Origin: a virus
Strand: one strand, 5' to 3'
IMG/VR virus record: IMGVR_UViG_3300037843_000280
Span: 1-64,000 of that record
Length of the DNA: 64,000 bases
The notes under the pieces were generated by a model. That model did no database searches, was not told the DNA's origin, and was given only the letters and a program-made list of their open reading frames with translations. Of this stretch, positions 1,046-59,728 are shown one piece after another (the first letter of the stretch is position 1; each line of letters begins with the position of its first letter). The position numbers and the translations under genes were made by a program.

Positions 1046-1068
1046 GTATTGTGACTGATACTGGAGGC

Positions 1069-1144: not shown

Positions 1145-1165
1145 ATGTCCTTAGTATACAGTCTG

Positions 1166-1849
1166 TCAAACATTTTCGTCCATTTCCTCGAACTGCTTTT
1201 TCAGCTTGAGATACAACTCCTTGTCGCGTTCCGCATTCGCCTTCTTTTTCTTCTTAGCGGCTTCCGCTGCCTTTTCCGCCTTTTCCTTGGCTTCCTTCTG
1301 CTTCGCCTCGAAGTAGCGGTCGAGGCGCTTCTGTACTTCCCTCGCAATCGCATCGTCGAGCGCGTCGTCCTCAAGCCCGAGCAGGTACGACGGGAAGCTT
1401 TGCTCGTATGTCACGTACTCTGGGTGGCAGTGGCAGGCGTCGTTGTACTCGTACGAGAGTGTGAACTGGCTCTCGTCGAACGACTCCAGCTTTTCGAAGC
1501 TCCCGTGCGTTCGGATTCCGGGAAGGTTCGCGATCTTGAGCCGCTGAAGCTCCCTTCCGAGGGCTTGGTTATATTGGTCCGCGACCGCGAACGTCTGCTG
1601 GTGAATCCACTCGTATGTCTCTGCCGCTTCCTTAACGTCCTATGTCATCTCAGTTCTCCTTTGTCTTAGTTTTTGGACTTCCTCGATCAGGCTGCGTATG
1701 AATGAGCACAATTCGGGGTTGTCCGTTCCTCCGTAGTATTCCCCGTCCACGTAGAACTTGTCCTGGTTGCAATGCCCGGAACAATGGCAGGGAACATGCT
1801 CCCAGCCGTACTTGGTGCCGTCAATCTCGATCTCCAGCATTGTCATCAT
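1166..1849 (-). CDS. Amber-interrupted early gene: one frame from about 1849 (or ATG 1840) to TAA at 1166, with a single in-frame TAG at 1640..1642; ~227-aa readthrough product with duplicated CHC motifs
   Basis: ORF-track entries 1640..1849 and 1166..1414 are in the same frame. Own translation of the 75 codons after the TAG (DVKEAAETYEWIHQQTFAVADQYNQALGREL...NDACHCHPEYV) shows no stop and no ATG/GTG/TTG start. Both halves carry CHC motifs. Confidence 0.6.
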
Positions 1850-25283: not shown

Positions 25284-25291
25284 AATGTCTC

Positions 25292-39448: not shown

Positions 39449-39580
39449 ACCCTAGTATACAGCGGGGGCCTCGCGTTTGTCCACCCGCTTGAAAATATTT
39501 CCCACGACAGATGTACTTTTTACATAACGACAAATAAATAAGTAACTTACGGCAGGAATCATCGACATAGTGATGTGGCT

Positions 39581-40108: not shown

Positions 40109-40143
40109 TTCAAACCCTCGCTAAAGGGCTTGAAATTAGGGTT

Positions 40144-40664: not shown

Positions 40665-40665
40665 G

Positions 40666-40902
40666 TCAGCGCTCCTGCTCTGGCGCTGAGTCGCCAGCGG
40701 GGGTTTCTGTCAGTGGGCCGCCCCCGGCGACCGCCATCTTGCGGACCTCCGCGTCGTCGATGTGCGTCGCATTCTTGGTGACGGCTTCCCACAGCTTCGA
40801 CAAGGCAAACCCCTCCTCGGGGTGGATGCCCGACTCTGCGTGCTTCTCGACGACATGGACGAGGTAATCGTAAAGGACATCTGGAAGCTGAATCACACGC
40901 AT
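40666..40902 (-). CDS. Hypothetical small protein (78 aa)
   Basis: ORF track. GGAG RBS. Confidence 0.45.
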   Translation of the reverse strand: MRVIQLPDVLYDYLVHVVEKHAESGIHPEEGFALSKLWEAVTKNATHIDDAEVRKMAVAGGGPLTETPAGDSAPEQER

Positions 40903-40974
40903 TGGGTTTTCTCCGAAAGGTTAATACTGAGATGGGTAGCAGTTTGGCGAATCCAAACGATGAACTCAATTCGC

Positions 40975-41505: not shown

Positions 41506-41597
41506 TGTTCCTCCGTTCAGGAATAGTATACGTTCGCTTTCGTCGTTTCGTCCACCCGTAATATGCAGATTAGGCGGGACTTATTTTATGTTTGCCT

Positions 41598-41645
41598 CCC
41601 AAAAACACGAAAGGGAGCATTTCGGCTCTATAGCTTGGATGCTCC
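41598..41645 (-). terminator. Candidate minus-strand terminator (gggagcat/atgctccc 8-bp stem, then TTTCGTGTTTTT)
   Basis: Hairpin and T-tract seen in the sequence. Confidence 0.35.
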
Positions 41646-41705
41646 CACTAGACACATAATACCCGAAAGTTGGGAAAAGGGCAAGTTTTCAGGATTTCCC
41701 CTTTG

Positions 41706-41767
41706 TTTTCAACAGGTTAAAACCAGACAAAACGGGCTGGCAGCCTGTATACTGTTGGCGGAGGAAG
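41706..41767 (+). promoter_or_regulatory. Copy A of the 62-nt promoter/operator/RBS cassette: -35 CAGACA (41724..41729), near-palindrome GGCTGGCAGCC, -10 TG-TATACT (41748..41753), GGAGGAAG RBS
   Basis: 59 of 62 nt identical to the copy at 57450..57511. Confidence 0.6.
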
Positions 41768-41773
41768 ACAACA

Positions 41774-42145
41774 ATGAAAACTTTTCTGGCAACGCTTGCG
41801 GCAATCCTGTGTTCCGTCGCCGTGCTGATCCTCGCGCAGGTTTTGTACGTCAGATACGTGGACTACACCCAAGCGCAGGAGCATGAACAGTGGTCGCAGC
41901 AGGAATCGGACAAGCTAGACCAGGCCATCAAAAAGAACGTGGTCGAAAACTGGAACTACAAAGCCTGCGCCGAGCTTCTGGGAACGAGGGACAAGGACGG
42001 GCTTGGATACCCCATGGAGGGCGACAACCTTCAATGGTTCCAAGACCACACCCACGAACTGACGCCCGTCACCGGCGTCACCTACTTCGGTGGCGGGATG
42101 AGCGACAGGGACATGGCTGCTTGCCGAGATAGAGCACGAGAGTAA
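41774..42145 (+). CDS. Small single-pass membrane protein (123 aa) driven by cassette A; possible holin/spanin-like or exclusion protein
   Basis: ORF track. N-terminal TM segment TFLATLAAILCSVAVLILAQVLYV. Confidence 0.55.
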   Translation: MKTFLATLAAILCSVAVLILAQVLYVRYVDYTQAQEHEQWSQQESDKLDQAIKKNVVENWNYKACAELLGTRDKDGLGYPMEGDNLQWFQDHTHELTPVTGVTYFGGGMSDRDMAACRDRARE

Positions 42146-42194
42146 GAGAAGCAGGATTGACCGCAAGGCACTAAGCGCGGCAATGCGCAAAAAC

Positions 42195-45100
42195 TTAAAT
42201 CATCGACGAGAAGCGCGTCGGGACATGCGGCTCGTAGACGAACGTCACCGTTTGGGTGATCGCATCGTAAGCAACGACGCGACCGATGCAGATGACCCAG
42301 CCGACTGGGCCGAACGGGGGACTTCCGGTCCCGGTCGTCAGCGAGGTGTAGTCCTGCGTCAGCCTGCCGTCCATGCCGACGTACAGCAAGCCTCCCACCA
42401 TGATCTGGTCGGCGGCGGTGACGGGAGACAGGAAATACTGCTCGCCGTAATACGATGTAACCTTCACCGATTGCCCCTGTGTGCCGGAAGTCAGCATAAC
42501 ACCGTCGGGGTTTGGCGCGAGAACAGCACCGGACGAGTCGATGGCGTAAAGGACGGACGAGGGCGGGACCTCCGCCGTAGGCCCGTAGTTCGCGTGGCCG
42601 GGAAAGCTGAAGGTGACAGAGGTCGGAGTTGCCGCCGTAGTGGTCACGACCTGACCGTTCAGGAACGACGCGTTCTGCAAGCCGGAAAAAGTGACGAGTT
42701 CGCCGCCGCCAGTTTGGAAGTGGTTTAGCGTCGTCGTGATCATGAAATTGCTCGATGCGTCGCTCTGCACGTTACTGATGGTCGGCACGATGGGGTCGAG
42801 CGGCGTGGCGTGTCCGTTGGCGTCGATGCTGACAGCCGTGAGCGCGGGGACGGGCGGGGCGAACCAGAACGGCACGTCCAAATTATAGTTCCTCGTGTTG
42901 CCTTGCGTGATCACCGTGTTGCCGCCGGGCGGGGACGTCACCTGCGACAGGATCATGCTGAACGTGCTACCTGGCTCGATGTCCGCCGTGCCGCCCGCCA
43001 GGTTGGTGGAGGCGAGCACCTCCACTCTGTCGCCCGCGCTGAATAGCTGGTTGAATGTGATGTTGGTCGTGGTCGCCCCGGCAGCCGCAGTGACGCTGGA
43101 CGCGGTCGCGATGGCTGTGCCGTTCTGCGTCACCGTGATCGTGTACGTCCCGGCGGACGGGACGTCCCACGCGAACGTGCCGATGCCGTTGTATGTCCCG
43201 GCAGCCTGGATGGTGAACAGGCCCGGCTGCAATGTGGTGACGTTCCCCGTGTAGTCGAAGTCCTGCGGAAGTTGAAGCACATCGAAGTTGACCTGCGCGT
43301 TGGTGCCGGGTGGCACCGGGGTCAGGGTCGTGTACACCGAGACGTGGAACCCGATCTGCTGCGTGGCTTGGAGCAGGGCGTTCGCGGTTGCCAATCCCTG
43401 CGCGATGGACGCCTGCATATTGCTCTTCCACACGTTGATCCCGGCGTAGCTGAGGTTCGTGCGGAGCATCGCGATCTGGACGGGAATCGGCTGCGCCTGG
43501 ATGTCCGGGCGGGAGAGGAACGCGACCGGGTTGAAGTCCATGTTGTTGATCCAGCCGTTGTCGTTGACGTTGGGGCTGAAGCCGCTGGGCGGGATCGTGA
43601 TCGGCTCCACGGGGATCGTCGGCAACGGCGTGCCGGGCGTCCACGTGCGGCTGCGCGACGCCACATCCAGGAGAAGCGAATTGTACGCGGTCGGGTCTCC
43701 CAAGGGGTTGACCGCGCCGTTGAAAATCTCCGGGTATGTCGCGGCTTGCTGCACGAGGTAAGGGTCTTGCGCAAGAAACACCGATAGGTTCGTCGCAAAG
43801 TCCCTCCAGAACTGGCTGAAGCGGTCAACCTGCGTCGCCTGCGCGAATTGATTGTACGTGAAACGGTTCGCGAGGCGCGGGGACAGGTAGGCAGTGTCGG
43901 CTTGGATGTCTGCCGAAGCAAGCTCGATGACGACGTTCATGGCGTTTTGGAACGACGTCGGGAACGTGATCGGCATGGGGAATTCCGCCGTACCTACGCC
44001 TAGCGTTAAGGTGGTGACCGACGTCGAGATCGCCGTCGATTGGTAGTCGAGGTCTGACCCGGTCGGCCCGGACAGGTACGTGTTGTCCTGGTACGAGTCC
44101 CACTGCGGGTTGCGCGTGTAGCCGAGCAGGGAAGCCTCGACGTAGGAAAGTTGCCACAGCAGGTGGTTAAGCTGGTTCGGTGTGAGGCTGGCGAATGTCT
44201 GGAGCAGCGGAATCTGCGGGACGTTCGAATAGATCGTATTCGCCGGGGCGGTTTCCCACACGGTCGCGTCCGTGCCGGGGACAACGTCCGTGTTAGCGGC
44301 GAGGGCAAGCCAGGTGCCGCCGCTGTACGTAACCACGTCGTTGGCGGCGTAGGTGGTGGTGGTGTTCCACGTACTCATCCATAGGAAATTTGTCAAGCCG
44401 AGGACGTCGTTCCACGGCACCGAAAGGGTCGTTACGGTGCTGACTGAGGGCTGGATGTAGTTTGTGTAAGCCGTCTGGAAATTCGGAATCCACACGCCGC
44501 CTCTGCCTTGGCGGTCGAGATTAAGATAGATCAGCCAAGCAGCGGTGAGCAGCGGGTCGAAGTTGGACGCGGCGATGTTTCCAAGGTTCACGAAGTGGAT
44601 CAGGTCCTTGCGAAGCTGGAGGTCGCGGAGCGCGTAGTTCGGGTTGCTGTAATCCGGGTCGCCGACGAAGACCGTATTGCCGCGCAGCGCCGGGACGATG
44701 CTCACGATGAAGTTGTCGAACACGTTCGCCGAAAGCTGCCAGTTTGAGATGACATAATGCGGGTCGGGCATCGCGCCCCACATGTTTTGGAGCGGGTTGA
44801 ATGCTGGTGTAGCCACCGATGGCGACATAGTCTGAAACACGGGATCGGCCGTGTTTGCCTGCATCGAGGCGATGAAGGCGGCGTTGGTCTGGTCTTGGCT
44901 CGGACTCACTACGCTCCCGCTGAACGGCGGTGTGAAGTAGCTCGCAGAGCCGAATGTCAGACCGCTGTAACTCGTTACGGACAGTGGGTCCGTGGTGAAT
45001 ATGCTCGACGATGACGATGTGCTCGGCGATGTGGGGCCAAGTGAACATTGGCTAAATGTGAAGTTGAAGTTGAATGACGTGTTCGACTTGAGTGCGGAGA

Positions 45101-45650
45101 ACAGTGCCAGCGGCGAGAACTGGAAACCGTTCCAGTTCCAAATCTGGTCAGGGAACAGGTTCGGGATCGAGGGCAGCGCCGGGATGCCCCAGTTGCAGAT
45201 GTTGTTCAGCAGGTTCGCTATCGAGTTCAGCACCGCCTGGACCATCGCGAGCATGGACTGCTCGATGGAGAGAAGCTGGGCGATGTTGCCTTGAATCGCG
45301 CTGACCAGACCGGCGATCTCCTGCTGGAGTTCCTGCGCCGTCTGGAGGATGCTGATCGAGTCGGCGATGTACTTAGGTATCCTTCCCGACTTGCCAAGCT
45401 GCCCGTCCACGGCGAGCGAATTCATGTGCGTGTACGAGGTGATGTACTTCTTGAGAAGCTGCATTTTCTGAAGAAGCAAATTGTTGGCATCGGCGATGCT
45501 CGACTCAAGAAAACGCCCCTGCTCCATCGCGTTGTGGTAGTACTTCTCGATGGTGGGATCGCCCAGCGGCGAGTGGCGGATCACCGCACCTTTGGCCTTA
45601 ATGGGCCAAAGCAACGCTGTCTGTTCCGCTGATGTGAGACTGTCTGCCAT
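42195..45650 (-). CDS. Large baseplate/fibre-associated structural protein (1151 aa) with a C-terminal FLNGQ repeat
   Basis: ORF track. Carries LQNASFLNGQVVTTTAATPTSVTFSF. Confidence 0.6.
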   Translation of the reverse strand: MADSLTSAEQTALLWPIKAKGAVIRHSPLGDPTIEKYYHNAMEQGRFLESSIADANNLLLQKMQLLKKYITSYTHMNSLAVDGQLGKSGRIPKYIADSISILQTAQELQQEIAGLVSAIQGNIAQLLSIEQSMLAMVQAVLNSIANLLNNICNWGIPALPSIPNLFPDQIWNWNGFQFSPLALFSALKSNTSFNFNFTFSQCSLGPTSPSTSSSSSIFTTDPLSVTSYSGLTFGSASYFTPPFSGSVVSPSQDQTNAAFIASMQANTADPVFQTMSPSVATPAFNPLQNMWGAMPDPHYVISNWQLSANVFDNFIVSIVPALRGNTVFVGDPDYSNPNYALRDLQLRKDLIHFVNLGNIAASNFDPLLTAAWLIYLNLDRQGRGGVWIPNFQTAYTNYIQPSVSTVTTLSVPWNDVLGLTNFLWMSTWNTTTTYAANDVVTYSGGTWLALAANTDVVPGTDATVWETAPANTIYSNVPQIPLLQTFASLTPNQLNHLLWQLSYVEASLLGYTRNPQWDSYQDNTYLSGPTGSDLDYQSTAISTSVTTLTLGVGTAEFPMPITFPTSFQNAMNVVIELASADIQADTAYLSPRLANRFTYNQFAQATQVDRFSQFWRDFATNLSVFLAQDPYLVQQAATYPEIFNGAVNPLGDPTAYNSLLLDVASRSRTWTPGTPLPTIPVEPITIPPSGFSPNVNDNGWINNMDFNPVAFLSRPDIQAQPIPVQIAMLRTNLSYAGINVWKSNMQASIAQGLATANALLQATQQIGFHVSVYTTLTPVPPGTNAQVNFDVLQLPQDFDYTGNVTTLQPGLFTIQAAGTYNGIGTFAWDVPSAGTYTITVTQNGTAIATASSVTAAAGATTTNITFNQLFSAGDRVEVLASTNLAGGTADIEPGSTFSMILSQVTSPPGGNTVITQGNTRNYNLDVPFWFAPPVPALTAVSIDANGHATPLDPIVPTISNVQSDASSNFMITTTLNHFQTGGGELVTFSGLQNASFLNGQVVTTTAATPTSVTFSFPGHANYGPTAEVPPSSVLYAIDSSGAVLAPNPDGVMLTSGTQGQSVKVTSYYGEQYFLSPVTAADQIMVGGLLYVGMDGRLTQDYTSLTTGTGSPPFGPVGWVICIGRVVAYDAITQTVTFVYEPHVPTRFSSMI

Positions 45651-48079
45651 TAGCTGTTCTCGTCGGACTGGTACAAGCCTTGGTTGTGAACAATGTCTGG
45701 TGCCTCGGTCGTGTCACGCACGAGGGATGCGCTGATCTTTTTCTGCTGCGTCTCGACGTTGTCCGTCTTAACGATCTGGCGGCGCGTGGTGTACTCAAGC
45801 GTGGCGTCGCCCGAGCAATAGTAGTTCAGGTTTCCGCGCTGGGAAATGTCGATGTCACCGTCGATCATGAGGCGCAGCGCCTTGCCCTGCTTGTTCGCCT
45901 TGATCGTGATCTCGACGCCGCCCTCCAGCGCCGCCGTAATGGAGCGCCCCTGGTTGTCCGTGCCGAGATCGAAGACGAGGCCGCCCGCCGTGTCGATCAG
46001 GATGGACTGGTTGGAGTCCGGGTTCGCGCCGACACGCAACAGGATGTCCCTCACGGCATGTAAGTCTAGGGACTGACCGTGCGAGTCCATCGGCGAGCCG
46101 GGCTGCGACTGGCTCGTGATCGGCGTGCCGGACCAGACATAGGGTGCTTGGAAGATGGACGGCAGGATAGGGGAGCCAGCCTGCGTGAGGTCGTGGAACT
46201 GGTAAACCGAGTCTCCGGCTCCGTAATCCGCCCTGTAGCTCTTCGAGTCCACGCGGGCGGCGTCGTTGATGCCGTAGGGGTGCTTGCCGGGTCCGTCTTG
46301 GTACCCGTTGTACAGGTGGCGACGCTTGGCTGACGGGTCTTTTGCACCGAGGCGGAGCACGGTGCCCCCGTCAAACGCGCCACGGAGCGAGACGCTCTCG
46401 CCCCCGGTCTTCATGGTCAGGCTGCCCGCGTCGCCCGGTTTGAGCGCGACGCCGTTTTGGCCCCAGAATTGGAGCGTGCGGTTGCCGACCAAATCTTTCC
46501 GGCTCCTGATCTGCGTTTGCGTCACGCGGCCGTCATTGCGCTGCGGGTTCGGTACCGACGTATCGTCCGATCCGAGGCGAAGCACGACTTGGCCGAGCGC
46601 CGTGAGGTCGAGTGACTCCTCTTCGTCGCGGTTCTTGCCGAAGACGACTTGCGCCGAGCCAACAATGTTTGCCTCAAGCGAGCGCCCGGCCCCGAACGAG
46701 TATTCGTACCCATTCGTCGGCATGAGCGGGATGTTCTCCTTGGGCAGCGTGGAGCCAATCTCCATCTGCACCAAGCCTTCCTTCGTGACGTTGAGGCGGG
46801 TCGTGTTCTGCTCGTATGGGAAGCGGATCGCGAGGCATGACGCCGCGAGCCTAGCCTCGGCATGGTCTGTCGAATCGACCACGGGGGCGTAGCCGGATTC
46901 CACACTTGCACCAAATTTGCCGAGATAGGGCATATTCGGCGTGCCAACAAAAAGCTGGGGTTTGAGCACCCTGCCGTATGTGCTCGTGTCGAAAAGGTTG
47001 TAGCCCACCAGCGTCCCGGCAGTGCTCTCCATGATGTAGCCCCGGCGCTGCGGCGTGACTCCCTCGTTCAGCAGCGGCCCGACAGCCTTGACGCGGTCGT
47101 CGAATGGGTCGTCCCAGCCTTGATTGATCTCGAACGATTCGCTATCGAACGCGGGAACGGTGCCGTTGGCCGGTGTGACCGTCGTGCGGAGCCATGGGTC
47201 AGCGGTCGTGCCAAGGATGGTATCGAGCAACGGGGTTTGCAACACCTCGTAGGGCACCGGGTAGTCAAGCGAGAACTCCTGCACAAGCTCCGTGTGCTCG
47301 CTGAACGGGATCACGTCGGGCTTCCCGCTGGTGTAGCGGTCGGACGGCTGAGCGCCTGGCTGCAAGTACGCGATGTAGTCGTTGGTGCCGTCCGGCAGTA
47401 GTGTTGGCACGATGCTCGAAGGCGCTGGGACGGGGTTCGCGGGCGTAGGGACGGTCGAGGGCGTCAGGACGGTGTTCGGGCTTGCCGGACGGCTGACGGA
47501 GCCTTGGTACGAGACCCCGGCGTCGCTATACGCCACTCTGCGCCCGGCGATCTGCGTCCACTGGCGTTTGTCGGAGTCCAGCTTGTCGCGGGAGAGGTCT
47601 GCCGTCTGCCTGTCCCACGCGGTGTCGATCCTCTCGGAGAAGCCGCCCGTGTAGGTCGAGGTCTTCGAGCCGGGGTACGCCTTGCGGTACGACAAGCGAG
47701 TGCGGTCAGTATACCCTTGGATGGAATCGCCAGTAATGGGACGGTTGGCAATGGCGTCGATGCCGATGTACACCTGAGACTGAACCCACGCCACGATGAT
47801 TGGAAAACGGAACGTCCCCTCGTAAGCCCAGTTGCACGCCACGCCTATAGCGCCTGGCTCGGGCATATTGATGTCTACGCTCTCAAACGACGCCGTATTG
47901 GCAGGAAAGACCGAGATGTCGCCGTAAATCAGGTTGTCTTTGATGTCACGGACGGTCAGCACCCTGCGCTCGAAGTCCACCGACAGAACCTCAACGAGAA
48001 ATACCTCATTCGCGATCCTAGTGTGTTCGCGCTCGAACGGAACTTTGGGGTAGTACTTTGTGTTTTCTCTGATTGCCAT
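45650..48079 (-). CDS. Baseplate/tail structural protein (809 aa)
   Basis: ORF track. TAATG coupling to its neighbour. Confidence 0.55.
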   Translation of the reverse strand: MAIRENTKYYPKVPFEREHTRIANEVFLVEVLSVDFERRVLTVRDIKDNLIYGDISVFPANTASFESVDINMPEPGAIGVACNWAYEGTFRFPIIVAWVQSQVYIGIDAIANRPITGDSIQGYTDRTRLSYRKAYPGSKTSTYTGGFSERIDTAWDRQTADLSRDKLDSDKRQWTQIAGRRVAYSDAGVSYQGSVSRPASPNTVLTPSTVPTPANPVPAPSSIVPTLLPDGTNDYIAYLQPGAQPSDRYTSGKPDVIPFSEHTELVQEFSLDYPVPYEVLQTPLLDTILGTTADPWLRTTVTPANGTVPAFDSESFEINQGWDDPFDDRVKAVGPLLNEGVTPQRRGYIMESTAGTLVGYNLFDTSTYGRVLKPQLFVGTPNMPYLGKFGASVESGYAPVVDSTDHAEARLAASCLAIRFPYEQNTTRLNVTKEGLVQMEIGSTLPKENIPLMPTNGYEYSFGAGRSLEANIVGSAQVVFGKNRDEEESLDLTALGQVVLRLGSDDTSVPNPQRNDGRVTQTQIRSRKDLVGNRTLQFWGQNGVALKPGDAGSLTMKTGGESVSLRGAFDGGTVLRLGAKDPSAKRRHLYNGYQDGPGKHPYGINDAARVDSKSYRADYGAGDSVYQFHDLTQAGSPILPSIFQAPYVWSGTPITSQSQPGSPMDSHGQSLDLHAVRDILLRVGANPDSNQSILIDTAGGLVFDLGTDNQGRSITAALEGGVEITIKANKQGKALRLMIDGDIDISQRGNLNYYCSGDATLEYTTRRQIVKTDNVETQQKKISASLVRDTTEAPDIVHNQGLYQSDENS

Positions 48080-48081
48080 CT

Positions 48082-50883: not shown

Positions 50884-52004
50884 AGCATGGAGTTCCAGAA
50901 ATTGGGGTTGGGCGATAGCACGTTGTCCATCGGCACGGAGTCGTTGGCGTCTGGGCTGACCTGAGGCAAGAGGTAGCTGGCTCGGGCAGAACTCACCGCT
51001 GGGGGCACCGGGGTTGCCGGGGCTGCGGGCGCGACAAACAATTGCGGACTAAATGGGGGCGGAGGAGGGGGCGGCGGCGGCGCGAACGGAAGCGGTGTAA
51101 AAGCGACGGTGTTTGTAAGGCTCAAAGACTGCTGCATCTGCTGCACAGCAAGGGCGGTGGGCTTCCACGCGCCGTAGTCGTGCCCGTGCTTGACGTCGTT
51201 GTGTTTCGTGTCGGGCCACGGCGACCCCTTGCGGAAGCGCTCCTTCCACGCCACGAACGAAATCTGGAAGTTCATAAGAAACGGCGTCTGCGCATCCTGC
51301 GAGACGGTCAGGGAATCGAACATCCCGTACCACATAAAGTTCCCGACGATGAGTTCCACATCGGCGTGCATCTTGATGATGCGGCGGCTGAAGTCCGCAC
51401 CGCCGCCCAGCGGCCCTTCTACAGGCTGCTCACCCTCAAACCAGTAGCCATTGTTCTCAAATACGACCTGAAGCTGCTCAAGGTTGCGGTAGGACTCCGT
51501 GAAGGGCTGGTACCTGTCGGTCAAGCCAAACGCAAAATACTGTCCCGCCGTCTTCCCAGTAAGGTTGATCATCAGCGAATCCTCACCCCACACCCCAATC
51601 TGCCAGCCGGAGCGTGCGAATGACTGAGCGTCAATCGTAGATCGGTTGACCACGACCTGCGACGGATTGATGAGGAAACGATACACTGCTGGCAAACCGT
51701 CGCCTTGCCCGTTGCCGCCGAGACCTCGGTTGTTGAGGCGCACGATAACGTAGTCCACATAAGGCGAGATAGCGGCAGAGATGTCGAAATCTTTGTCCGA
51801 GACGATGGGTGTGTGCGGCGGCGGCTGACCCGACGCAAACCACTGGGTCTCAAACGCCAAGCTGACGTTGGAAGGAGCCACAGGGGACGGGATGATGCGC
51901 TTCTCCCCGCGAATGGGAAGCTGCTGCGGGGACACGGTGCCCTGCGTGCCCGCATCTGGTCTGACGTCGCTGAGGTTGTCGATGCTGTTGTTCTGGGTCG
52001 CCAT
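50880..52004 (-). CDS. Tail structural protein (374 aa), possibly distal tail; poly-Pro segment
   Basis: ORF track. Position just downstream of the tape-measure/SLT pair. Confidence 0.45.
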   Translation of the reverse strand: MATQNNSIDNLSDVRPDAGTQGTVSPQQLPIRGEKRIIPSPVAPSNVSLAFETQWFASGQPPPHTPIVSDKDFDISAAISPYVDYVIVRLNNRGLGGNGQGDGLPAVYRFLINPSQVVVNRSTIDAQSFARSGWQIGVWGEDSLMINLTGKTAGQYFAFGLTDRYQPFTESYRNLEQLQVVFENNGYWFEGEQPVEGPLGGGADFSRRIIKMHADVELIVGNFMWYGMFDSLTVSQDAQTPFLMNFQISFVAWKERFRKGSPWPDTKHNDVKHGHDYGAWKPTALAVQQMQQSLSLTNTVAFTPLPFAPPPPPPPPPFSPQLFVAPAAPATPVPPAVSSARASYLLPQVSPDANDSVPMDNVLSPNPNFWNSML

Positions 52005-52007
52005 GTC

Positions 52008-53600
52008 TTATCCTTCGCTTCCTGTCGGTGGGGGCGGGGGCTGCGGGTTGCCGAAGGTTGCCTTAAGCTGCGCGATATTCTGGTTAATCTGCGTCTGGAC
52101 GTTGGAGTAGTACAGTGCCGTGTATGTCTTCTCCACTTGGAACACGAAGTTGAACTTCCACTGAAACGGAGACTCCGCGTCCTGCGTCCAGCTAAGGCTT
52201 TTGAAATATCCGAGATAGGTGTTGTTCCTGTACCTCATAGCGACATACCCGCGAGTCATGACGTCGTTGTTGCGGGAGTGCTGCTGGAAGCTGGTCGCCC
52301 CGGTCTGCGGTGACCATGCGCTTGCGCTCATCTGCTCGTCGCCCGTCATCACACCATTGTAGTTCTGGTTGTAGTAGTAAACGGTGCCGTTCATTTGAAA
52401 CAGCTTGAGGAACTCGACGAATGCGTCCTGCGCAGCGACGCGGAAAGCCTCAGCCGGATTCGAAAGCTCTTTCCGGGCTACGGCCTGTCCCGCTACGGTG
52501 TTCAGAGCGTCTTGGTCCCCTGTTCTGGCGGTTATGGCTACCTGCCCCGTGGAGGTCTGCGGGTCCGTGTTGAAAGTCGGCAAGAACGTATGCTTGAACC
52601 CCTGCGTCAACAGCTTGGCGACATCGTCATTGACGCCCGCCGTGCTCATGAAATCCGTCAGACCGAACTGGTTCATGAACACGCCCGTCGTCCCCGTGCC
52701 GCTGATCAGGTCCGGCTGCATGCCCCACAGGGTGATATGCATGCCGGTGCGGGACGGCGTGCGGGTGTACACGTGCTTGCTCGTGATCTCGAACGTAGCC
52801 ATGGACGTGTTCAACTGAATTTCGATGGGCTGCTTGACCACCGCTTGGTCGTTCGTCGGCACCGACAAGAACTGGGTGGGGTCGTTTCTGTCGAGGTAGA
52901 CCATGAACGAGACCGGCTGGACGCTCGCACGGATGCGCGGATTTCCCGTGACGAGACCCGTGTCGGCGTACCAAGCCTGCGCCCCCAGCGTGTCGTCTGG
53001 AATCTGAAGCTGGGGCTGCAATGTCTGCCGGAGGGTGTTGAGGTTCTTGTCGGACTCAGCTTGGCTTCTGGCGCTGTCCAAATAGTTGATGCCCTGCGGC
53101 CCGGTGACCGCCGCTGATTGCGGTGCGGAGTCGTCCACTGTAGCCGCATTGCTGAGCGCGTACACTGCGGACACGGAGGGGCTGCCCGCCTGCGCCGCTA
53201 TAGTGGAAACGTTGTACACGAAGTTCTGTACCGGGGCGAGCGGCGGCACGCCGCCCGCAAACTGCACGGTGCCAACTGAGGTAATGTAGGCAGCGATAGA
53301 CAACGGATAGTTGCCCACGAATGCCTGCAAAAGCGAGGCGAAGAAGGCGGCACCGGCTTCTATGTTCTGGTTTTCGTCCGTGGCGTCGAAGCCGAAAGAG
53401 GTGGCCGTCGCCTTGCTGATGCCCATGACGCCCACGCCGAACGGGGTAACCACAAGCGATCCGTCAGAGTAGAATTGCTGCCCGCCCGACGCGATTTGTG
53501 CGATTGCGGATAGAACAAGGCTGTCAACGCTGTACTTGGAAGCGAAGCTGACAATCTGGCTCTGCACGCCCTGCGGCAGTTGGATGGAGTATGCTGGCAT
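52008..53600 (-). CDS. Tail-associated SLT-domain protein (530 aa)
   Basis: N-terminal AIAQIASGGQQFYSDGSLVVTPFGVGVMGIS transglycosylase motif. Confidence 0.55.
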   Translation of the reverse strand: MPAYSIQLPQGVQSQIVSFASKYSVDSLVLSAIAQIASGGQQFYSDGSLVVTPFGVGVMGISKATATSFGFDATDENQNIEAGAAFFASLLQAFVGNYPLSIAAYITSVGTVQFAGGVPPLAPVQNFVYNVSTIAAQAGSPSVSAVYALSNAATVDDSAPQSAAVTGPQGINYLDSARSQAESDKNLNTLRQTLQPQLQIPDDTLGAQAWYADTGLVTGNPRIRASVQPVSFMVYLDRNDPTQFLSVPTNDQAVVKQPIEIQLNTSMATFEITSKHVYTRTPSRTGMHITLWGMQPDLISGTGTTGVFMNQFGLTDFMSTAGVNDDVAKLLTQGFKHTFLPTFNTDPQTSTGQVAITARTGDQDALNTVAGQAVARKELSNPAEAFRVAAQDAFVEFLKLFQMNGTVYYYNQNYNGVMTGDEQMSASAWSPQTGATSFQQHSRNNDVMTRGYVAMRYRNNTYLGYFKSLSWTQDAESPFQWKFNFVFQVEKTYTALYYSNVQTQINQNIAQLKATFGNPQPPPPPTGSEG

Positions 53601-53601
53601 G

Positions 53602-56600
53602 TCACCGTCCCGCCAGCGGCGAATACATATCGCTCAGGGGACTCTCACTCGCGGTCTTTCCGACAGTATTAGGCGTCTGGAAGTTTTGTTTGACATCGCC
53701 TTGAATGTACTGCGTGTTACTGTTGTCGATAGTGGTAGGACCCTGCCCCTGCCGAAGATATGGGCTATTTCCGATGTCGATGCTGGTCATGGGCGGAAGT
53801 GTTCCTGCTAAATCAGTAAAGGCTTTGGAAAGCTCCTTCGTCGCTTTCATGGCCTCGTCCATCTCGTCCTGCGATTCAAATTGCCCCCGCCCCAATTCTG
53901 GAGCCATAATTTCTTGGACATGCTTCAAATGCCCAGCGATGTCGTCAAGCTTCTTGTATTGCTCTTGGTCTACATCAGACCACTGAGTCATGGGGACATT
54001 TTTGTTCTTTTGCTCAAGCTTAATCTGTTCCTCTGAAATCTCGGCCATTTTGTCGGGGATAGCTCCAACGCCAAAGCCGAAATCCTTGGACATCTTGTCG
54101 AAACTATCCTGCCGTTCGGCTGTTTCCTCCTTCATGGTTTTCACGCCGGGGATTTTGCTGTACACCTTCTCGAAAACACCGGCGATGTATTCCAACCACG
54201 AGATGATCTTAGTGAGCCACTTCGAGAACACCGCACCGACAGCGTCCGCCACGCTCTGGGTCTGCCTGCCGATCTTGCGTGCCTTGTCGAGTTCCAGCGC
54301 AAGCTCCGTATCGGAGACACTAAATTGGTCGGCGGCATGAGTGACAACTTGGGTCAGAAGACCGTTCGTATCCTCAAGCTCCCCCGCCATCTTGGGTGTA
54401 TGCCTAAGAAAATCAGCAACTTTTTCAGTATCATCACCCAAAGCGTCAAGCTGGCTGACCTGCGTGATGCCATTCTCTCTGAGCCACTTGTAGTTGGGCA
54501 CTGCCCCCTTTGCCTTCCACTTGGTGAACACTTCCTTGGTGAGCGCTTGGGCATCCAGCCGGGCTTGGTCGTCGCCGCCCGCCATCAGGTTTGTCGTCCT
54601 TTCGGTCATGGTCTCGGCGAACCTGCGACGCGTCTCGGCCGGGTCCATGTGGTAGATTTCGCTAAGCTGCTTCAGGAAACCAATAGCAGCGGTACTGCTC
54701 GCGCCCGGCCCGAAAGCTCCAGTTCCAGAAACAAGATCACTTACATTGATACCCCATTGCTGTGCCGCTGACCGCACCTTGGTGAGGTTTAGGGCTGCGG
54801 TACCAGCGGGGGTCACGATACCCGCCGCCCTGCCAGCAGCTTGCCCGTAAGCGTCGGAACGGGCGTTCCCTGCTGCGGTTATACTTTCACGCAAACTTTG
54901 CACCGATTGGTCAATCATTTGCGCTTGAGCTTTCGAGATTTTTCCACCGATAAGTGCGGTCTTGGTGTCCAATTCCAGCTTATCGACCTGCGTCACCGCC
55001 TTGGCGAAATCCGCCGCGCCGCCCTCGCCCAAGTTAATCGTCGGTATTTCTATGCCCGTGCCGCCTTTAGTTTTCCTGTTTATGTCCGCAACTTGACCAC
55101 GGACGGCGTCAAGCTGCTTGTCCACGCCAGCATCCGTGGCCTTAATCACAGCCTTTCTGTTTTCCGTGGTTTCCTGCGTCAGCGCGTAAATGTCCTCGGA
55201 AATGCCCCCCACGTCCGGCTTGGTCTCGGTGGTGAGGAATTCCATCATGTCCTTGAGAATCTCGCTACTTACCGCGCCGGAGCGGCCAAGCTCGCGCATG
55301 ATGCCCAAGGTCTGGTTGATTTCCTTGTTCATCTTATTGAAATGACCGCTCACCTCGTCGATGATCTTGAGGTACTTGGTCGTGGAGATTCCGGCAGCGT
55401 CGGTGTCCTTCTCGATCTGCGCAAGAAACTTTTCCGTGCTGTCCAAGGTCTGGGAGTATTGTTCCAGCATCTTCAAGACTTCCTGCACTCCCTCGACGTC
55501 CGTCATCCCGAGAACCCTGCCGATCCCGGTGACTATCCTCTGCACCTGACCGAACCCACCGCCAGCGAAGCCGGAGGTCAAGGCACTGACCCCCGTGGTG
55601 ATCGGGCGGGCGTCCGCCAAACGTTCCTCCCCGAGCATGCTTTTGATCCCGTAGCCTCCCTCTGTCAAAGCTGCGGCGATGTCGAGGTTGCGCTGCCACG
55701 TAATACCAAGCTCGTTGAGACCGAGACCGCTAGGAGTCAAGGCGCGTCGCGTCCTCGCGAACGCATCCTCGCCGCCCAGAGTCGTGCCACCGAGGCGGTC
55801 AAGCATGGCGCTTCCGGTGAACAGCCCGCCCTTGGCGAGCTTAGCCTCCATATCCTTGTTCTGCTTGACATACTTGTCAAACACCGCGATCAACGCTTCG
55901 ACCGCGATTGCAAGCCACCCCAACGGCCCGCTCAGTGCTTCCATGCCCACTTCCAACGCACCGACGCCACCTTCGATTGCGTCCACCACTCCGTCCATTA
56001 CTTTGTCCATCACTCCGCCTGCCGCGCCCCCCTCAGTCGCAGCCATGCGGGCGAGGCGGGGGGCTTGGTAAGCCTCCTTCATGGCTCCCCACTGCTCCCT
56101 CAGTTCCGGCACGTACCCTTTCCTGCGCGTCGTCGTAGCGCCGCGAATGAAATCCCCAAGCTTACCGATCTCGGACTTCTTTATGGACGAGGAAAAATCC
56201 TTCCCGGCCTTAGCGGTGCGCTCAGCAAGATTGGTCAGGTCCCTCATCTCGCCTGTGGTGAGGTCCCTAGCTTCGTCACCAAACTTCGAAAGGGCCTTTT
56301 CCCAATCACCAATTTGCCTGCGAATCGCAGCAGCACCAACAGAAAAAGATTTCTGGGAGGCAAGGGCGTCTTTCATGGCTTTCACCATGTCCTCAATCTG
56401 CTCCTTGGCTTCCTTGGTGTCCTTGATGTTGCGGATTTCGTGAACGAACTTCTTAGTGAACCTGTTGATCTCGGCGAGCTTGTTTTCGACTTTGTCGAAA
56501 AGCCCAACGATGAAAGAAAGCTTTTCCTTGTCAAGATTTTTGGTGACATTCTTGGCGTGCTCGGCCATAGCTTTGAGGTGCTCCTCCGACAACCCCGCCA

Positions 56601-56718
56601 CCCTGTTCGCCTCGCGCAGCGCCTCCATCATCCCCTCCATTTGGTTCGCTGTGCCGGGATCGAGGCCAGACGGGGGACCGCCCGCGCCTGTCGGATTCGG
56701 AGTTGTCGGGTCAGCCAT
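53602..56718 (-). CDS. Tape-measure-like protein (1038 aa, alpha-helical with hydrophobic mid-segments)
   Basis: Composition and hydrophobic segment GWLAIAVEALIAVF. AGGAG RBS. Lies downstream of the chaperone-like gene. Confidence 0.5.
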   Translation of the reverse strand: MADPTTPNPTGAGGPPSGLDPGTANQMEGMMEALREANRVAGLSEEHLKAMAEHAKNVTKNLDKEKLSFIVGLFDKVENKLAEINRFTKKFVHEIRNIKDTKEAKEQIEDMVKAMKDALASQKSFSVGAAAIRRQIGDWEKALSKFGDEARDLTTGEMRDLTNLAERTAKAGKDFSSSIKKSEIGKLGDFIRGATTTRRKGYVPELREQWGAMKEAYQAPRLARMAATEGGAAGGVMDKVMDGVVDAIEGGVGALEVGMEALSGPLGWLAIAVEALIAVFDKYVKQNKDMEAKLAKGGLFTGSAMLDRLGGTTLGGEDAFARTRRALTPSGLGLNELGITWQRNLDIAAALTEGGYGIKSMLGEERLADARPITTGVSALTSGFAGGGFGQVQRIVTGIGRVLGMTDVEGVQEVLKMLEQYSQTLDSTEKFLAQIEKDTDAAGISTTKYLKIIDEVSGHFNKMNKEINQTLGIMRELGRSGAVSSEILKDMMEFLTTETKPDVGGISEDIYALTQETTENRKAVIKATDAGVDKQLDAVRGQVADINRKTKGGTGIEIPTINLGEGGAADFAKAVTQVDKLELDTKTALIGGKISKAQAQMIDQSVQSLRESITAAGNARSDAYGQAAGRAAGIVTPAGTAALNLTKVRSAAQQWGINVSDLVSGTGAFGPGASSTAAIGFLKQLSEIYHMDPAETRRRFAETMTERTTNLMAGGDDQARLDAQALTKEVFTKWKAKGAVPNYKWLRENGITQVSQLDALGDDTEKVADFLRHTPKMAGELEDTNGLLTQVVTHAADQFSVSDTELALELDKARKIGRQTQSVADAVGAVFSKWLTKIISWLEYIAGVFEKVYSKIPGVKTMKEETAERQDSFDKMSKDFGFGVGAIPDKMAEISEEQIKLEQKNKNVPMTQWSDVDQEQYKKLDDIAGHLKHVQEIMAPELGRGQFESQDEMDEAMKATKELSKAFTDLAGTLPPMTSIDIGNSPYLRQGQGPTTIDNSNTQYIQGDVKQNFQTPNTVGKTASESPLSDMYSPLAGR

Positions 56719-56722
56719 TTAG

Positions 56723-57400
56723 TTACTCCTTGTTTTCCTTTTCAGACTCCGTGTCGTACCGCGCCGACACTTGCTCTTCGAGGATTGCCTTGTTCGCCTC
56801 GTCGATCTGCTTGCGTGCCCGCTCGAAAAGCCTGCGTTCGACTTCCGTGAGCGTGGCGCTGTCAGGGAACTGTTCCTTCAGGCGGTCTTCGATGTTCTGC
56901 GAGTGCGTCATCAACACCTTCCACAGAACCTCGACAAGCTCCTGACCCCAGCCCATGATTACATTGCGCAGCACGACCTGGCAGTCGCGCAGGGGCTTAT
57001 CCTTGTCAGTGATGTCCGGCAGGAAGCGCCTCTCCGGAGGCAGCCCGCGAAGGTCGATGCCCTCGATCCAAGAGATGGCGCGGGACAGAAGCTCGACCTT
57101 GACGCGCTTCGTCCAAAGATAGCCCTTGAACTCGTCCGCCGCCTGCACCGAAAGCATCTCGTCCGATGTCGGAATATTCGCGATCTTCACGCGCAAGTCT
57201 CTGTTCTTACATTTGATTGTCAGGATTTCCTCGAATTCCTCGATGCCGAACCCCTTCAGCCCGGAGATCACCTCTTCGAGCGACTTGGGAGGCTCCGGCT
57301 GCGGATCGGGCGGGGCGACCACTTTTAACTCATCCTGTGCTTTTTCAACGCTATCCATAGTGAATGTTCCTTCTTCTGTAAAGTAGATTTGCAAACCCAA
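56723..57400 (-). CDS. Putative tail assembly chaperone (225 aa)
   Basis: Position immediately upstream of the tape-measure-like gene. Acidic helical protein. Confidence 0.35.
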   Translation of the reverse strand: MGLQIYFTEEGTFTMDSVEKAQDELKVVAPPDPQPEPPKSLEEVISGLKGFGIEEFEEILTIKCKNRDLRVKIANIPTSDEMLSVQAADEFKGYLWTKRVKVELLSRAISWIEGIDLRGLPPERRFLPDITDKDKPLRDCQVVLRNVIMGWGQELVEVLWKVLMTHSQNIEDRLKEQFPDSATLTEVERRLFERARKQIDEANKAILEEQVSARYDTESEKENKE

Positions 57401-57449
57401 AAAGATGAAATCGCTGTTCTCTAATACTCGGGCACGGCATCTGCCTGTA

Positions 57450-57511
57450 TTTTCAATAGGTTAAAACCAGACAAAACGGGCTGGCAGCCTGTATACTGTT
57501 AGTGGAGGAAG
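57450..57511 (+). promoter_or_regulatory. Copy B of the 62-nt promoter/operator/RBS cassette (-35 57468..57473, -10 57492..57497)
   Basis: 59 of 62 nt identical to copy A. Confidence 0.6.
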
Positions 57512-57516
57512 CTCCT

Positions 57517-58080
57517 ATGGAATGGCTCATCAGGTTCATCGGAAAAGTGATAAGCAACATCATAGCATTCGTGGTGATTTGCATTGTCATCCTCTCTGCG
57601 CCGCTGGCCTCAATCGCGGTGGTGGTCCTGCTGGAAATCGACCCCATCTCCCGCTCTTGGGGGGACTCTAACCCCATAGGTTGGTTTGTATTCTGCCCGT
57701 TCTTCGTAGGCGTCTGGTATATGTTCATCGCGTCCATGACGCACCGTGCCAGAGCGAAGCATCTCGGCTTGACCCCCCACACTGGCATCCTTCGGTCTGC
57801 CGGACGCCACATCGGCGGGACGCTCCTGTCTTTCGCCGCTGTCCTAACCGCTATCTTCGCAGGGGAAGCCGTCCTCGGTCCGTATGCAGGAATGAGCGAG
57901 ACGGCGATTGCACTATCCATCCGAGAGCTTGCCCCCGTGCTTCTGCTTGCCGCATGGAGTCCGGTGCTGATCAACCTGACGCGACACTTCATGCGACGCT
58001 ACCCAAGCAAGCGGGAAATCTCTTCCGTACTTGATGGAATCAGCGGTACTTCCGAATCTTCTCCAGTTGCCGGTCGATAG
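57517..58080 (+). CDS. Polytopic (~4 TM) membrane protein (187 aa) driven by cassette B
   Basis: ORF-track 57502 GTG start lies inside the RBS. ATG at 57517 used instead. Confidence 0.55.
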   Translation: MEWLIRFIGKVISNIIAFVVICIVILSAPLASIAVVVLLEIDPISRSWGDSNPIGWFVFCPFFVGVWYMFIASMTHRARAKHLGLTPHTGILRSAGRHIGGTLLSFAAVLTAIFAGEAVLGPYAGMSETAIALSIRELAPVLLLAAWSPVLINLTRHFMRRYPSKREISSVLDGISGTSESSPVAGR

Positions 58081-59657: not shown

Positions 59658-59728
59658 GTCACTGAGAGGTTGCGTAGCCTATTCAAGAGGAAATACCGTC
59701 AAGTTGCCGCCAAGGGCGGTATTATTGG

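Follow-up and report, generated by a model that had tools for sequence, protein, structure and literature searches.

The 64,000-nt window analysed here, taken from the DNA of an uncultured peat-bog phage, contains a direct repeat of 68 nt (family D5), the copies of which (41700-41767 and 57444-57511) are identical at 63 of 68 positions (93%) and precede two plus-strand genes, termed A and B. The preliminary description had counted 59/62 identical positions between 41706-41767 and 57450-57511, which alignment reproduced, the real repeat being longer. Both copies have an exact 42-nt core in common (41715-41756 = 57459-57500), found twice in the window even if 3 mismatches are allowed, and never in 100 shuffles. 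The search for further copies proposed in the preliminary description returned the cassette twice only in the window, a count that covers one 64.8-kb contig, which may be part of a larger genome (the contigs of relatives measure 83-463 kb); viral and genome collections yielded no exact copies elsewhere. Since both cassette contexts are seen again in independent ENA, JGI and Logan assemblies, an assembly artefact as the source of the repeat is ruled out. The features of the locus are:

41700..41767, plus strand: cassette copy A, read as the derived copy; A/T-rich block, -35, dyad-bearing spacer, -10, 6 nt, Shine-Dalgarno sequence
57444..57511, plus strand: cassette copy B, read as the ancestral copy; divergent intergenic region between a 211-aa gene and gene B
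41707..41719 and 57451-57463, plus strand: upstream block TTTCAA-N4-TTA, partly kept in relatives
41724..41753, plus strand: predicted core promoter A; -35 CAGACA (41724-41729), 18-nt spacer, -10 TATACT (41748-41753)
57468..57497, plus strand: predicted core promoter B; -35 CAGACA (57468-57473), 18-nt spacer, -10 TATACT (57492-57497)
41735..41745 (copy A) and 57479..57489 (copy B), no strand assigned: spacer dyad GGCTGGCAGCC, GGCTG-G-CAGCC, an exact match
41760..41767, plus strand: Shine-Dalgarno sequence GGAGGAAG of gene A, 6 nt past the -10
57504..57511, plus strand: Shine-Dalgarno sequence GGAGGAAG of gene B, 6 nt past the -10
41774..42145, plus strand: gene A, a 123-aa orphan with an N-terminal TM/signal-anchor helix and a C-terminal domain of ~90 aa
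57517..58080, plus strand: gene B, coding for a membrane protein of 187 aa (four long helices, basic C-terminal tail)
41716..42193, no strand assigned: 478-bp block comprising copy A from GTTAAAACC on, gene A and a 49-nt 3' flank, with TTAAA at both junctions
41600..41684, minus strand: conserved unit between cassette A and the gene of a 176-aa protein

An independent promoter scan called both core promoters with the hexamers and the 18-nt spacer that had been described before, scoring each at 9/12 against TTGACA/TATAAT, a yardstick from which the preferences of the host may deviate; the spacer length falls in the range of 16-18 nt characteristic of sigma-70-type promoters. The -35 hexamer is weak (4/6). 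The TG described in front of TATACT is indeed there, directly abutting the hexamer, but not in the register of a canonical extended -10 element (TGnTATAAT), which has its TG one base upstream; at both copies the scan returned 'TG_before_second: no'. The ATG starts of genes A (41774) and B (57517) lie 5-6 nt 3' of the Shine-Dalgarno sequences. The TTTCAA-N4-TTA block has three matches in the window, two of them in the cassettes, and is kept in the relatives L017, L018, L020 and L038 and also at locus A of L028, a relative without gene A; speculatively, it might serve as an UP-like or architectural-protein site.

Genes A and B are the sole credible membrane proteins in the window, and no known protein family was matched by either of them, including zero matches to known defence-system models (PADLOC). 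For gene A (GC3 0.73), one N-terminal hydrophobic helix (TM at 1-30) was found, as expected from its earlier classification as single-pass. All contigs of this phage species that extend to the site carry the gene; among 5.8e9 proteins it matched only itself, and among 1.84e9 representatives only spurious, repeat-driven matches were obtained. Our best guess is a membrane-anchored, periplasm-facing accessory protein. Gene B, previously assigned about 4 TM segments, shows 3-4 hydrophobic segments, and an AF2 model gives it four long helices. Its homologues are 38-66% identical, positional orthologues being linked by profile comparison (E 9e-5), and no match was found in Pfam, PHROG, PADLOC, NCBIfam or PDB. 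Judged by these comparisons, gene B is a fast-evolving four-helix membrane protein that occupies the same position throughout the clade, with copy B as the ancestral cassette. A possible role, put forward tentatively, is that of an early inner-membrane exclusion or immunity-type protein. It is less probable that gene B is the missing holin: it has the anatomy of a holin (small membrane protein, TM domains, basic charged tail RHFMRRYPSKRE), but matches none of the described holin families in Pfam, PHROG or NCBIfam, and the endolysin (39581-40108) is 17 kb off. Both proteins would be accessory proteins acting at the envelope.

Each cassette lies directly upstream of a plus-strand gene that converges on minus-strand genes, in agreement with the preliminary description. 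Genes A and B are, however, not situated inside the late operons, as stated there, but at boundaries between minus-strand transcription units. Gene A ends 49 nt before the stop of the tail-fibre gene, and gene B shares 41 nt with the 3' end of 58040-59089. The conserved minus-strand unit next to cassette A consists of TTGCCC-N17-TATTAT (41684-41656), a hairpin GGGAGCAT..ATGCTCCC (41646-41613) and a T-run (41612-41600). The hairpin stem is conserved in four lineages, with one compensatory pair, and the unit could serve to terminate the tail-fibre operon or else be a small RNA/attenuator.

To what extent the cassette is conserved was derived from the orthologous gene-B promoters of nine lineages (this phage plus L017, L018, L020, L021, L023, L025, L038 and L039). 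TATACT is invariant in 9/9 promoters (2.0 bits per column), followed by the Shine-Dalgarno sequence (1.37 bits per column) and the -35 (0.93 bits per column), whereas the columns of the spacer (0.65 bits) and flanks (0.35-0.45 bits) are drifting. The spacing between -35 and -10 is constant at 18 nt, and GGAGG (GAGGA in one case) is located exactly 6 nt past TATACT in eight of the nine lineages. What is conserved are thus the hexamers and their distance, and not the spacer sequence, as is typical of a sigma-70-type promoter. In the ~12-kb loci of the relatives, the gene-B promoter is the sole match to the promoter pattern (6 matches versus 0.25 expected). The constancy of TATACT, with its C at position 5, is stricter than that of typical housekeeping promoters.

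The pattern GAC[AG]-N18-TATACT occurs at six sites in the window versus 0.05 expected, four of which, besides the cassettes, were found with a pattern that already requires TATACT:

41525..41554, minus strand: TGGACG-N18-TATACT before the gene of the 176-aa secreted protein (40975-41505)
39454..39483, minus strand: TGGACA-N18-TATACT, 5 nt before the ATG of a 221-aa gene (38783-39448)
11595..11624, minus strand: weak -35 GCGACG, 6 nt before the ATG of a GIY-YIG/NUMOD3 homing endonuclease (10950-11588)
1153..1182, minus strand: TGGACG-N18-TATACT, 8 nt before the first tRNA of an array (894-1144)

At all six sites, an ATG (leaderless in two cases), a Shine-Dalgarno sequence or the 5' end of a mature tRNA follows after 5-10 nt. 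The TATACT noticed earlier upstream of 40975-41505 is the first of these four (minus strand, 41530-41525), and the secreted-protein gene heads a cluster that includes the GH108 endolysin. For the 221-aa gene, a leaderless mRNA is predicted; the tRNA array consists of three tRNAs with a CTA anticodon (suppressor tRNAs). The promoter class, with the consensus T[A/G]GAC[A/G]-N18-TATACT, is phage-wide. The idea of a dedicated regulon of small membrane proteins is supported in part only: the same promoter type is used more widely, namely before the lysis-side cluster, the 221-aa gene, the endonuclease and the suppressor tRNAs. The interpretation of the repeat as a promoter plus ribosome binding site, in turn, gains from this six-site family and from the hexamers, spacing and Shine-Dalgarno distance kept in eight diverged relatives.

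Orthologous gene-B promoters are 43-68% identical to copy B, versus 93% for copy A. In a global alignment, L028 lacks the 478-bp block: window positions 41692-41715 are followed directly by 42194-42307 (81% identity), without a gap at the junction on the L028 side. In L030, L031 and L032/33, inspected by eye, the intergenic region runs straight into the 3' end of the tail-fibre gene, their alignments being too diverged to define the indel, and tblastx detected no gene-A-like coding sequence there. Since the closest relatives are devoid of the block, copy A is, as far as alignments can tell, a recent duplicate, or gene-conversion product, of the regulatory region of B that became fused to an orphan gene, and the promoter duplication is tied to gene capture. 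A less probable alternative is that the block was lost from several relatives instead of gained in this lineage. A recent duplication carrying both genes, named in the preliminary description as a finding that would speak against its proposal, is ruled out because the A and B proteins are not homologous.

We consider it highly probable that the locus harbours one sigma-70-type promoter with its Shine-Dalgarno sequence in two copies, B being the ancestral one and A a recent duplicate with a captured orphan gene. According to this proposal, host RNA polymerase would start ~7 nt past TATACT, at the first G of GGAGG, and would produce very short-leadered mRNAs for the two plus-strand genes, without depending on the minus-strand units on either side. 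With a leader as short as predicted, the Shine-Dalgarno sequence would come to lie at the 5' end of the mRNA, an unusual arrangement. The same promoter class would also drive the tRNA array, the homing endonuclease, the leaderless gene and the secreted-protein/lysis cluster. The 478-bp block lies between the stop codon of the tail-fibre gene and a TTTGTTTTCAACAG motif that was already in place and is similar to the left edge of copy B, and this short homology may have guided the duplication event. As a net result, the newly acquired gene A would be wired for co-expression with gene B.

The invariance of TATACT makes it possible that this promoter class is read by a specialised holoenzyme, with a host stress-type sigma or a phage-encoded or modified factor, and defines a temporal class; we regard this as a minor possibility. 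TATACT is found in all nine orthologous promoters and in the four other family sites (where the pattern required it), and an unrelated peat contig of 436 kb carries this pattern in front of a DNA ligase gene. The hexamer is identical to the sequence initially put forward as the -10 consensus of E. coli sigma-S promoters (with CCGACA as the proposed -35), including the C at position 5, the -10 element of this type being given as TATACT, CTATACT or KCTAYRCTTAA (PMC5650638). The sigma-S hallmark C at -13 is, however, a G in the present promoters, TTAA is missing downstream, and the conserved -35-like element at fixed spacing fits a group-1 sigma. Moreover, no sigma-like protein was seen among the window proteins scanned, a set of incomplete coverage.

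The duplicated promoter could also be a portable cassette of the kind of the promoter-early stem-loop (PeSL) mobile regulatory cassettes of T4-type phages (Arbiol et al. 2010, PMC2839356; Comeau et al. 2014, PMC4122927), its stem-loop attenuating or terminating opposing minus-strand transcription and its copies acting as homology patches for the capture and shuffling of orphan genes. This would extend the promoter-duplication explanation rather than exclude it. The anatomy fits the published description (PMC2839356), gene A is exactly an ORFan indel, and in L020 another gene is inserted adjoining the cassette. On the minus strand, TTTTGTCTGGTTTT comes after the spacer hairpin; the A-run that follows the -35 is conserved and reads as a U-run behind the hairpin on the opposite strand. 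Dyads of at least 4 bp are present in 5/9 orthologous spacers as opposed to 13% of random 18-mers (binomial p ~0.003, a statistic that varies with the chosen parameters), and such recurrence above chance points to a possible structural role of the spacer, outside the promoter-duplication model. Still, we find the portable-cassette function unlikely: the window has two copies in 64 kb and not dozens, the minus-strand hairpin is weak (4 bp, mismatch, 2 bp), uncalled by a terminator scan and missing from the minimum-energy fold of copy A, and a recombination event between the direct copies would remove 15.7 kb of structural genes.

The near-palindrome reported for the spacer is present in each copy as a perfect 5+1+5 dyad between -35 and -10, the classic position of a repressor site. 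It had been suggested to be operator-like, and GGCTGGCAGCC could then be bound by a dimeric phage or host repressor co-regulating exactly these two membrane-protein genes. A dyad of at least 5 bp is rare by chance (2.6% of random 18-mers), and exact copies of GGCTGGCAGCC are confined to the two cassettes in the window. None of the eight orthologous gene-B promoters and none of the four other family promoters contains the sequence, however, which argues against a conserved operator; matches with one mismatch all fall inside coding regions, and no candidate repressor emerged. The identity of the two copies is uninformative on constraint, as the duplication is recent. An operator-controlled mini-regulon is therefore very unlikely. 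The chance that the 68 nt act as RNA (leader, riboswitch, small RNA or translational operator) and not as a promoter is close to negligible, for although the spacer dyad can form a 7-bp hairpin as RNA, CAACAG/CTGTTG pairing is possible and folding is somewhat better for copy A than for shuffled sequences (z = -2.3), it is no better for copy B (z = -0.7), the two copies fold differently, no Rfam family matched, the relatives keep two hexamers at fixed spacing plus the Shine-Dalgarno sequence and not paired columns, and leaderless ATGs and a tRNA follow the same hexamer pair at a distance of 5-8 nt.

Among known systems, T4 Imm and Sp are small early membrane proteins of a lytic phage that block superinfection. 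Genes A and B resemble them as small, putative inner-membrane proteins with predicted host-type promoters apart from the late genes, and as fast-evolving, lineage-specific proteins, whereas neither sequence nor structural similarity was detected.

A second system are the morons, genes with their own promoter and terminator between conserved genes of lambdoid and other temperate phages (PMC2839356). Gene A is likewise a single extra gene with its own predicted promoter, absent from relatives and located between the tail fibre and the lysis-side cluster, which is a classic moron location; its transcription is predicted to be independent of the flanking operon. In contrast to morons, no terminator-like site follows gene A on the plus strand (42146-42194 or nearby), its promoter was apparently copied from a resident phage promoter and not imported, and no temperate life of the phage is indicated (the proteins scanned gave no integrase match, and a set of 185,579 species genomes gave no prophage relatives). 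The designation moron-type, proposed before, fits the anatomy of gene A except for the terminator.

PeSL cassettes, finally, consist of an AT-rich block, sigma-70-like hexamers, a stem-loop mostly between -35 and -10, and a 3' Shine-Dalgarno sequence, and precede indel ORFans (PMC2839356). The present repeat shares the format of a repeated intergenic motif of ~60-100 nt with these same elements, the position upstream of ORFans, the ORFan insertions and deletions between close relatives and the crossovers within the cassette. It differs in copy number (two in 64 kb, versus ~50 per PeSL genome with tens clustered in hyperplastic regions), in that the cassettes do not flank the ORFan on both sides and point against the adjoining structural genes, and in a stem-loop without a T-run on the promoter strand. 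Also, the phage is not demonstrably T4-like, having in common only a Baseplate_J domain, GIY-YIG endonucleases and tRNAs. By analogy, the PeSL cassettes of T4-like phages and the morons are the nearest known counterparts of the locus; the copying of a promoter in front of an orphan gene is a known route of gene gain in phages, and the present result is solid, if unsurprising.

Positions 41706-41767 and 57450-57511 agree, without gaps, at 59 of 62 nucleotides, as the preliminary description had it, and the full two-copy regulatory repeat extends over 68 nt (copy A, 41700-41767; copy B, 57444-57511; 93% identity), with a 42-nt core that is identical in both copies. Matches to this core with up to three mismatches were found at two sites in the window, compared with none in 100 dinucleotide shuffles. 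The elements claimed for both copies are all present, namely CAGACA, an 18-nt spacer with GGCTGGCAGCC, TATACT and GGAGGAAG, followed by the ATG codons of gene A (41774) and gene B (57517). An independent consensus scan classified both copies as sigma-70-like (9/12), in line with the promoter and ribosome binding site reading; in the same scan, the TG before TATACT turned out to lie out of register for an extended -10 element. The surroundings of copy A and of copy B both reappear in separate assemblies of peat samples from ENA, JGI and Logan, so that the repeat is not an assembly artefact. Four public contigs (L006, L010, L045 and L049) end within cassette A or B, at about 41727, 41743 and 57462, which is consistent with short-read assemblers breaking at a 42-68-nt repeat.

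Part of the argument for a genuine promoter comes from relatives of this phage, which were found via neighbouring genes (45-80% protein identity). In eight diverged lineages (L017, L018, L020, L021, L023, L025, L038 and L039), the position upstream of the gene-B orthologue has a -35 element T[A/G]G[A/C]C[A/G], a spacer of exactly 18 nt and an invariant TATACT, followed after 6 nt (8 nt in L038) by GGAGG or a close variant. Across the relatives' loci of about 12 kb each, the pattern matched at the gene-B promoter and nowhere else (6 matches, 0.25 expected). The hexamer pair is enriched, correctly placed, conserved and at a fixed distance to the Shine-Dalgarno (SD) sequence, which supports the promoter and ribosome binding site reading.

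Column information at the gene-B promoter in nine lineages (the window phage and its eight relatives), in bits per column
-10 element: 2.0
SD: 1.37
-35 element: 0.93
Upstream A/T block: 0.81
Spacer: 0.65
Flanks: 0.35-0.45

The palindrome in the spacer had been described as operator-like, but its sequence is conserved nowhere among the orthologous promoters, and the operator reading is not supported. Dyads of at least 4 bp occur in five of the nine spacers, compared with 13% of random 18-mers, a suggestive excess that varies with the parameters chosen.

The pattern GAC[AG]-N18-TATACT occurs at six sites in the window, compared with 0.05 expected from Markov shuffles, the six including both cassettes, which share one origin. 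The other four sites (position of the first G, strand, and what follows) are:
41552, minus strand; 10 nt to the SD of the 176-aa gene
39481, minus strand; -10 element, then 5 nt to the ATG of the 221-aa gene
11622, minus strand; -10 element, then 6 nt to the ATG of a GIY-YIG/NUMOD3 endonuclease gene
1180, minus strand; -10 element, then 8 nt to the first of three tRNAs

Since the same promoter class precedes tRNAs, a homing endonuclease gene and the 221-aa gene, the proposal of a dedicated regulon of membrane proteins is not supported. The placement at all six sites agrees with that expected of a genuine -10 element, from which transcription would start about 7 nt downstream. Host RNA polymerase would initiate some 7 nt after TATACT, with the mRNAs of genes A and B beginning at the SD and the two genes presumably being co-expressed. 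The 221-aa gene (38783-39448, minus strand, downstream of the endolysin gene; no family match for its protein) has TATACT 5 nt before its ATG without an SD, and its mRNA is predicted to be leaderless, as is that of the first GIY-YIG endonuclease gene (10950-11588), with its ATG 6 nt after the -10 element. Taken together, T[A/G]GAC[A/G]-N18-TATACT with an SD 6 nt downstream defines a promoter class of a poorly known clade of peat phages, which should aid the annotation of transcription units and of leaderless and accessory genes in related metagenomic contigs.

The exact 30-nt cassette is absent from the viral and genome collections, and a degenerate cassette pattern gave no match in viral contigs and a single one in metagenome contigs, before a ligase gene on an unrelated 436-kb peat contig; this match is informative on the promoter type only. 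The contig (L040, Ga0326728_10000058) is phage-like and reads CAGACAAAAC-N12-TGTATACT-N6-GGAGG at 332-372, before a gene for an ATP-dependent DNA ligase. The same promoter-SD architecture is therefore not confined to a single phage; a host in common may be the reason.

The window covers nearly the whole of a 64.8-kb contig of an uncultured phage with 58% G+C, for which a near-identity search with 40000-60000 against 50,697 phage records gave no match. Its minus strand carries long structural genes, including those for a 1700-aa protein containing Baseplate_J, Ig-domain proteins, tail-fibre-like proteins and a 530-aa SLT-domain protein; the plus-strand replication genes begin at 59729. Further features are:
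894-1144, minus strand; three tandem tRNAs, all with anticodon CTA and encoded CCA ends, mutually diverged (74% mean column identity)
4750-4952, minus strand; predicted permuted (two-piece) tmRNA (strong match to RF04321, 91.5 bits vs a gathering score of 47 bits)
10950-11588, 14054-14863 and 24747-25367, minus strand; GIY-YIG homing endonuclease genes, two with NUMOD3, scattered among the structural genes
39581-40108; GH108 endolysin gene
41600-41684, minus strand; conserved unit between cassette A and the 176-aa gene

Gene A and the gene of a 176-aa secreted protein (40975-41505, minus strand), which heads the endolysin-containing cluster, diverge from the gap in which copy A is located, and gene A converges on a tail-fibre gene (42195-45650). 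Copy B occupies the divergent gap between gene B and a 211-aa gene (56723-57358) that is the first of the long structural block on the minus strand; the last 41 nt of gene B are shared with the 3' end of 58040-59089. Given these divergent and convergent positions, the two genes are located at borders between minus-strand units and not, as first described, inside the late operons. Upstream of the 211-aa gene, at 57361-57430 (minus strand), inspection by eye revealed the motif GAGTATTA(G/A) and some 50 nt of leader sequence (..GATTTC..TTGCAAATC.ACTTTACAGGAAGG), each conserved in several relatives. They may represent the promoter of the late operon and its leader, directed away from cassette B. 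A search of 185,579 species genomes for the host recovered no relative of the 211-aa neighbour.

The likely origin of the second copy is suggested by locus A, the site of copy A and gene A. Identity is 93% between copies A and B, but no more than 43-68% between B and the promoters of its orthologues. The closest relative at locus A (L028/L029, 76% identity in the 176-aa protein) is collinear with the window but for one clean gap, window positions 41692-41715 running directly into 42194-42307 in the L028 alignment. The intervening 478-bp block (41716-42193), confined to the window lineage in this comparison, consists of the promoter (starting at GTTAAAACC), gene A and a 3' flank of 49 nt; it is a lineage-specific block with copy A and an orphan gene. 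In L030, L031 and L032/33 the intergenic region, judged by eye, leads straight into the 3' end of the tail-fibre gene, with divergence too great to define an indel, and tblastx found no gene-A-like coding sequence there. The left junction lies within TTTGTTTTCAACAG, a motif similar to the left edge of copy B and already present at locus A of L028, and TTAAA is present at both junctions. Gene A is found in all contigs of this phage species that reach the site. It has only a self-match among 5.8 billion proteins, and exhaustive HMMER searches of 1.84 billion representatives gave only spurious, repeat-driven hits; assignments to WD40, Myb, fn3 or repeat proteins were rejected, these weak hits being mutually inconsistent. 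The gene A body of the block resembles neither the relatives nor the rest of the window on either strand.

A duplication that carried both genes along, the alternative named in the preliminary description, does not account for the repeat: A and B are not homologous, so only the regulatory region was duplicated, up to a point between the SD and the ATG. The most likely source of the repeat is the recent duplication of a promoter already resident in the phage, tied to the capture of an orphan gene. Copy A would have arisen from copy B through duplication or gene conversion, with the short upstream motif common to both loci as a guide. In L020, the gene-B promoter is separated from the 211-aa orthologue by an inserted extra gene (5341-5976) for a Cys-rich protein of 211 aa, with an HNH-like motif by eye and no Pfam hit, making the cassette-bearing intergenic region a recurrent insertion site.

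The three amber-suppressor tRNAs immediately follow a family promoter. About 28% of the long ORFs terminate in TAG, and translation with the standard code leaves the long genes uninterrupted; there is no sign of TAG recoding in the window, and read-through of phage or host genes is possible. For gene B, which ends in TAG, amber read-through was rejected, as its orthologues use TAG and TAA alike and the long genes show no sign of recoding. The permuted tmRNA, also detected by ARAGORN with the tag peptide VTAPKAMAFAAAA, may hint at the host lineage. The minus-strand unit next to cassette A recurs in L028, L030 and L031 at about 5812-5935 and consists of a good sigma-70-like promoter (TTGCCC/TTGACT-N17-TATTAT), about 10 nt, a hairpin (GGGAGCAT..ATGCTCCC, conserved, one of its pairs being compensatory) and a T-run. 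Candidate roles for the unit are those of an attenuator, of the terminator of the tail-fibre operon or of a small RNA some 55 nt long.

Neither protein has a match in Pfam, PHROGs, PADLOC, NCBIfam or PDB. Gene A (123 aa) encodes a transmembrane or signal-anchor helix at the N-terminus and, at the C-terminus, a domain of about 90 aa that was poorly predicted (low-confidence AF2 model, pLDDT 61). Gene B (187 aa) encodes a basic C-terminal tail, and AF2 gave four long helices for it at low confidence (pLDDT 60), for which Foldseek found nothing with E <= 0.001 in the PDB; gene B has a handful of uncharacterised homologues and is linked to its positional orthologues by profile comparison (E 9e-5). 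A 63%-identical homologue on L037 (82-612) adjoins a resolvase gene in another neighbourhood, with no TATACT promoter within the 81 nt available upstream, and the gene-B family itself may move between elements. Gene B may be a holin, since the window has no credible membrane protein other than A and B, and no transmembrane segment occurs in the small genes beside the endolysin gene. On the other hand, gene B is 17 kb away from the endolysin gene and is oriented like the replication genes; its promoter class is also that of the tRNAs and of a homing endonuclease gene, and this rather suggests an early accessory role, e.g. in exclusion. As a conserved and lineage-specific membrane protein with four predicted helices, B is flagged as a target for work on exclusion or lysis control.

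A bolder reading is that the cassette is a portable, bifunctional module of a phage lineage outside the T4-likes, combining promoter and SD on one strand with a terminator or insulator (spacer dyad and conserved A-run) on the other, its copies serving as homology patches that capture and at once wire orphans such as gene A into the programme of gene B. The terminator or insulator would then end opposing structural-gene transcripts at operon borders, and A and B might act together, e.g. as a lysis-timing or exclusion pair; we consider this proposal unlikely. The upstream block TTTCAA-N4-TTA is a weak lead as an IHF site. The IHF consensus is WATCAANNNNTTR, of which the block has 8 of 9 specified positions; strict matches to the consensus are absent from the window, and the variant shows no significant enrichment in it beyond the two copies. 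An RNA-level function of the 68 nt was dismissed, with folds differing between copies A and B and no Rfam match at either cassette.

Rather than a new kind of regulatory system, the repeat reveals a known kind of phage genome plasticity: a clean, junction-resolved example of probable orphan-gene gain by an uncultured environmental phage, in which the acquisition would have re-used a resident promoter-RBS unit with the junction at short pre-existing homology. The closest described system is that of the PeSL cassettes of T4-type phages. Such cassettes recur between genes and combine an AT-rich block with sigma-70-like hexamers, an SD and a stem-loop that is usually situated between the hexamers; they precede ORFans and, through recombination, bring about ORFan indels (PMC2839356; PMC4122927). 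Anatomy and ORFan association are alike, whereas parallels in PeSL copy number, two-sided ORFan flanking, terminator activity and T4 affiliation are lacking or at most conjectural. TATACT equals the early sigma-S -10 consensus (PMC5650638), but the -13 C hallmark is absent from the cassettes. Like a moron, gene A is an extra gene with its promoter between conserved genes; it differs in being without a terminator and in a phage with no evidence of lysogeny.
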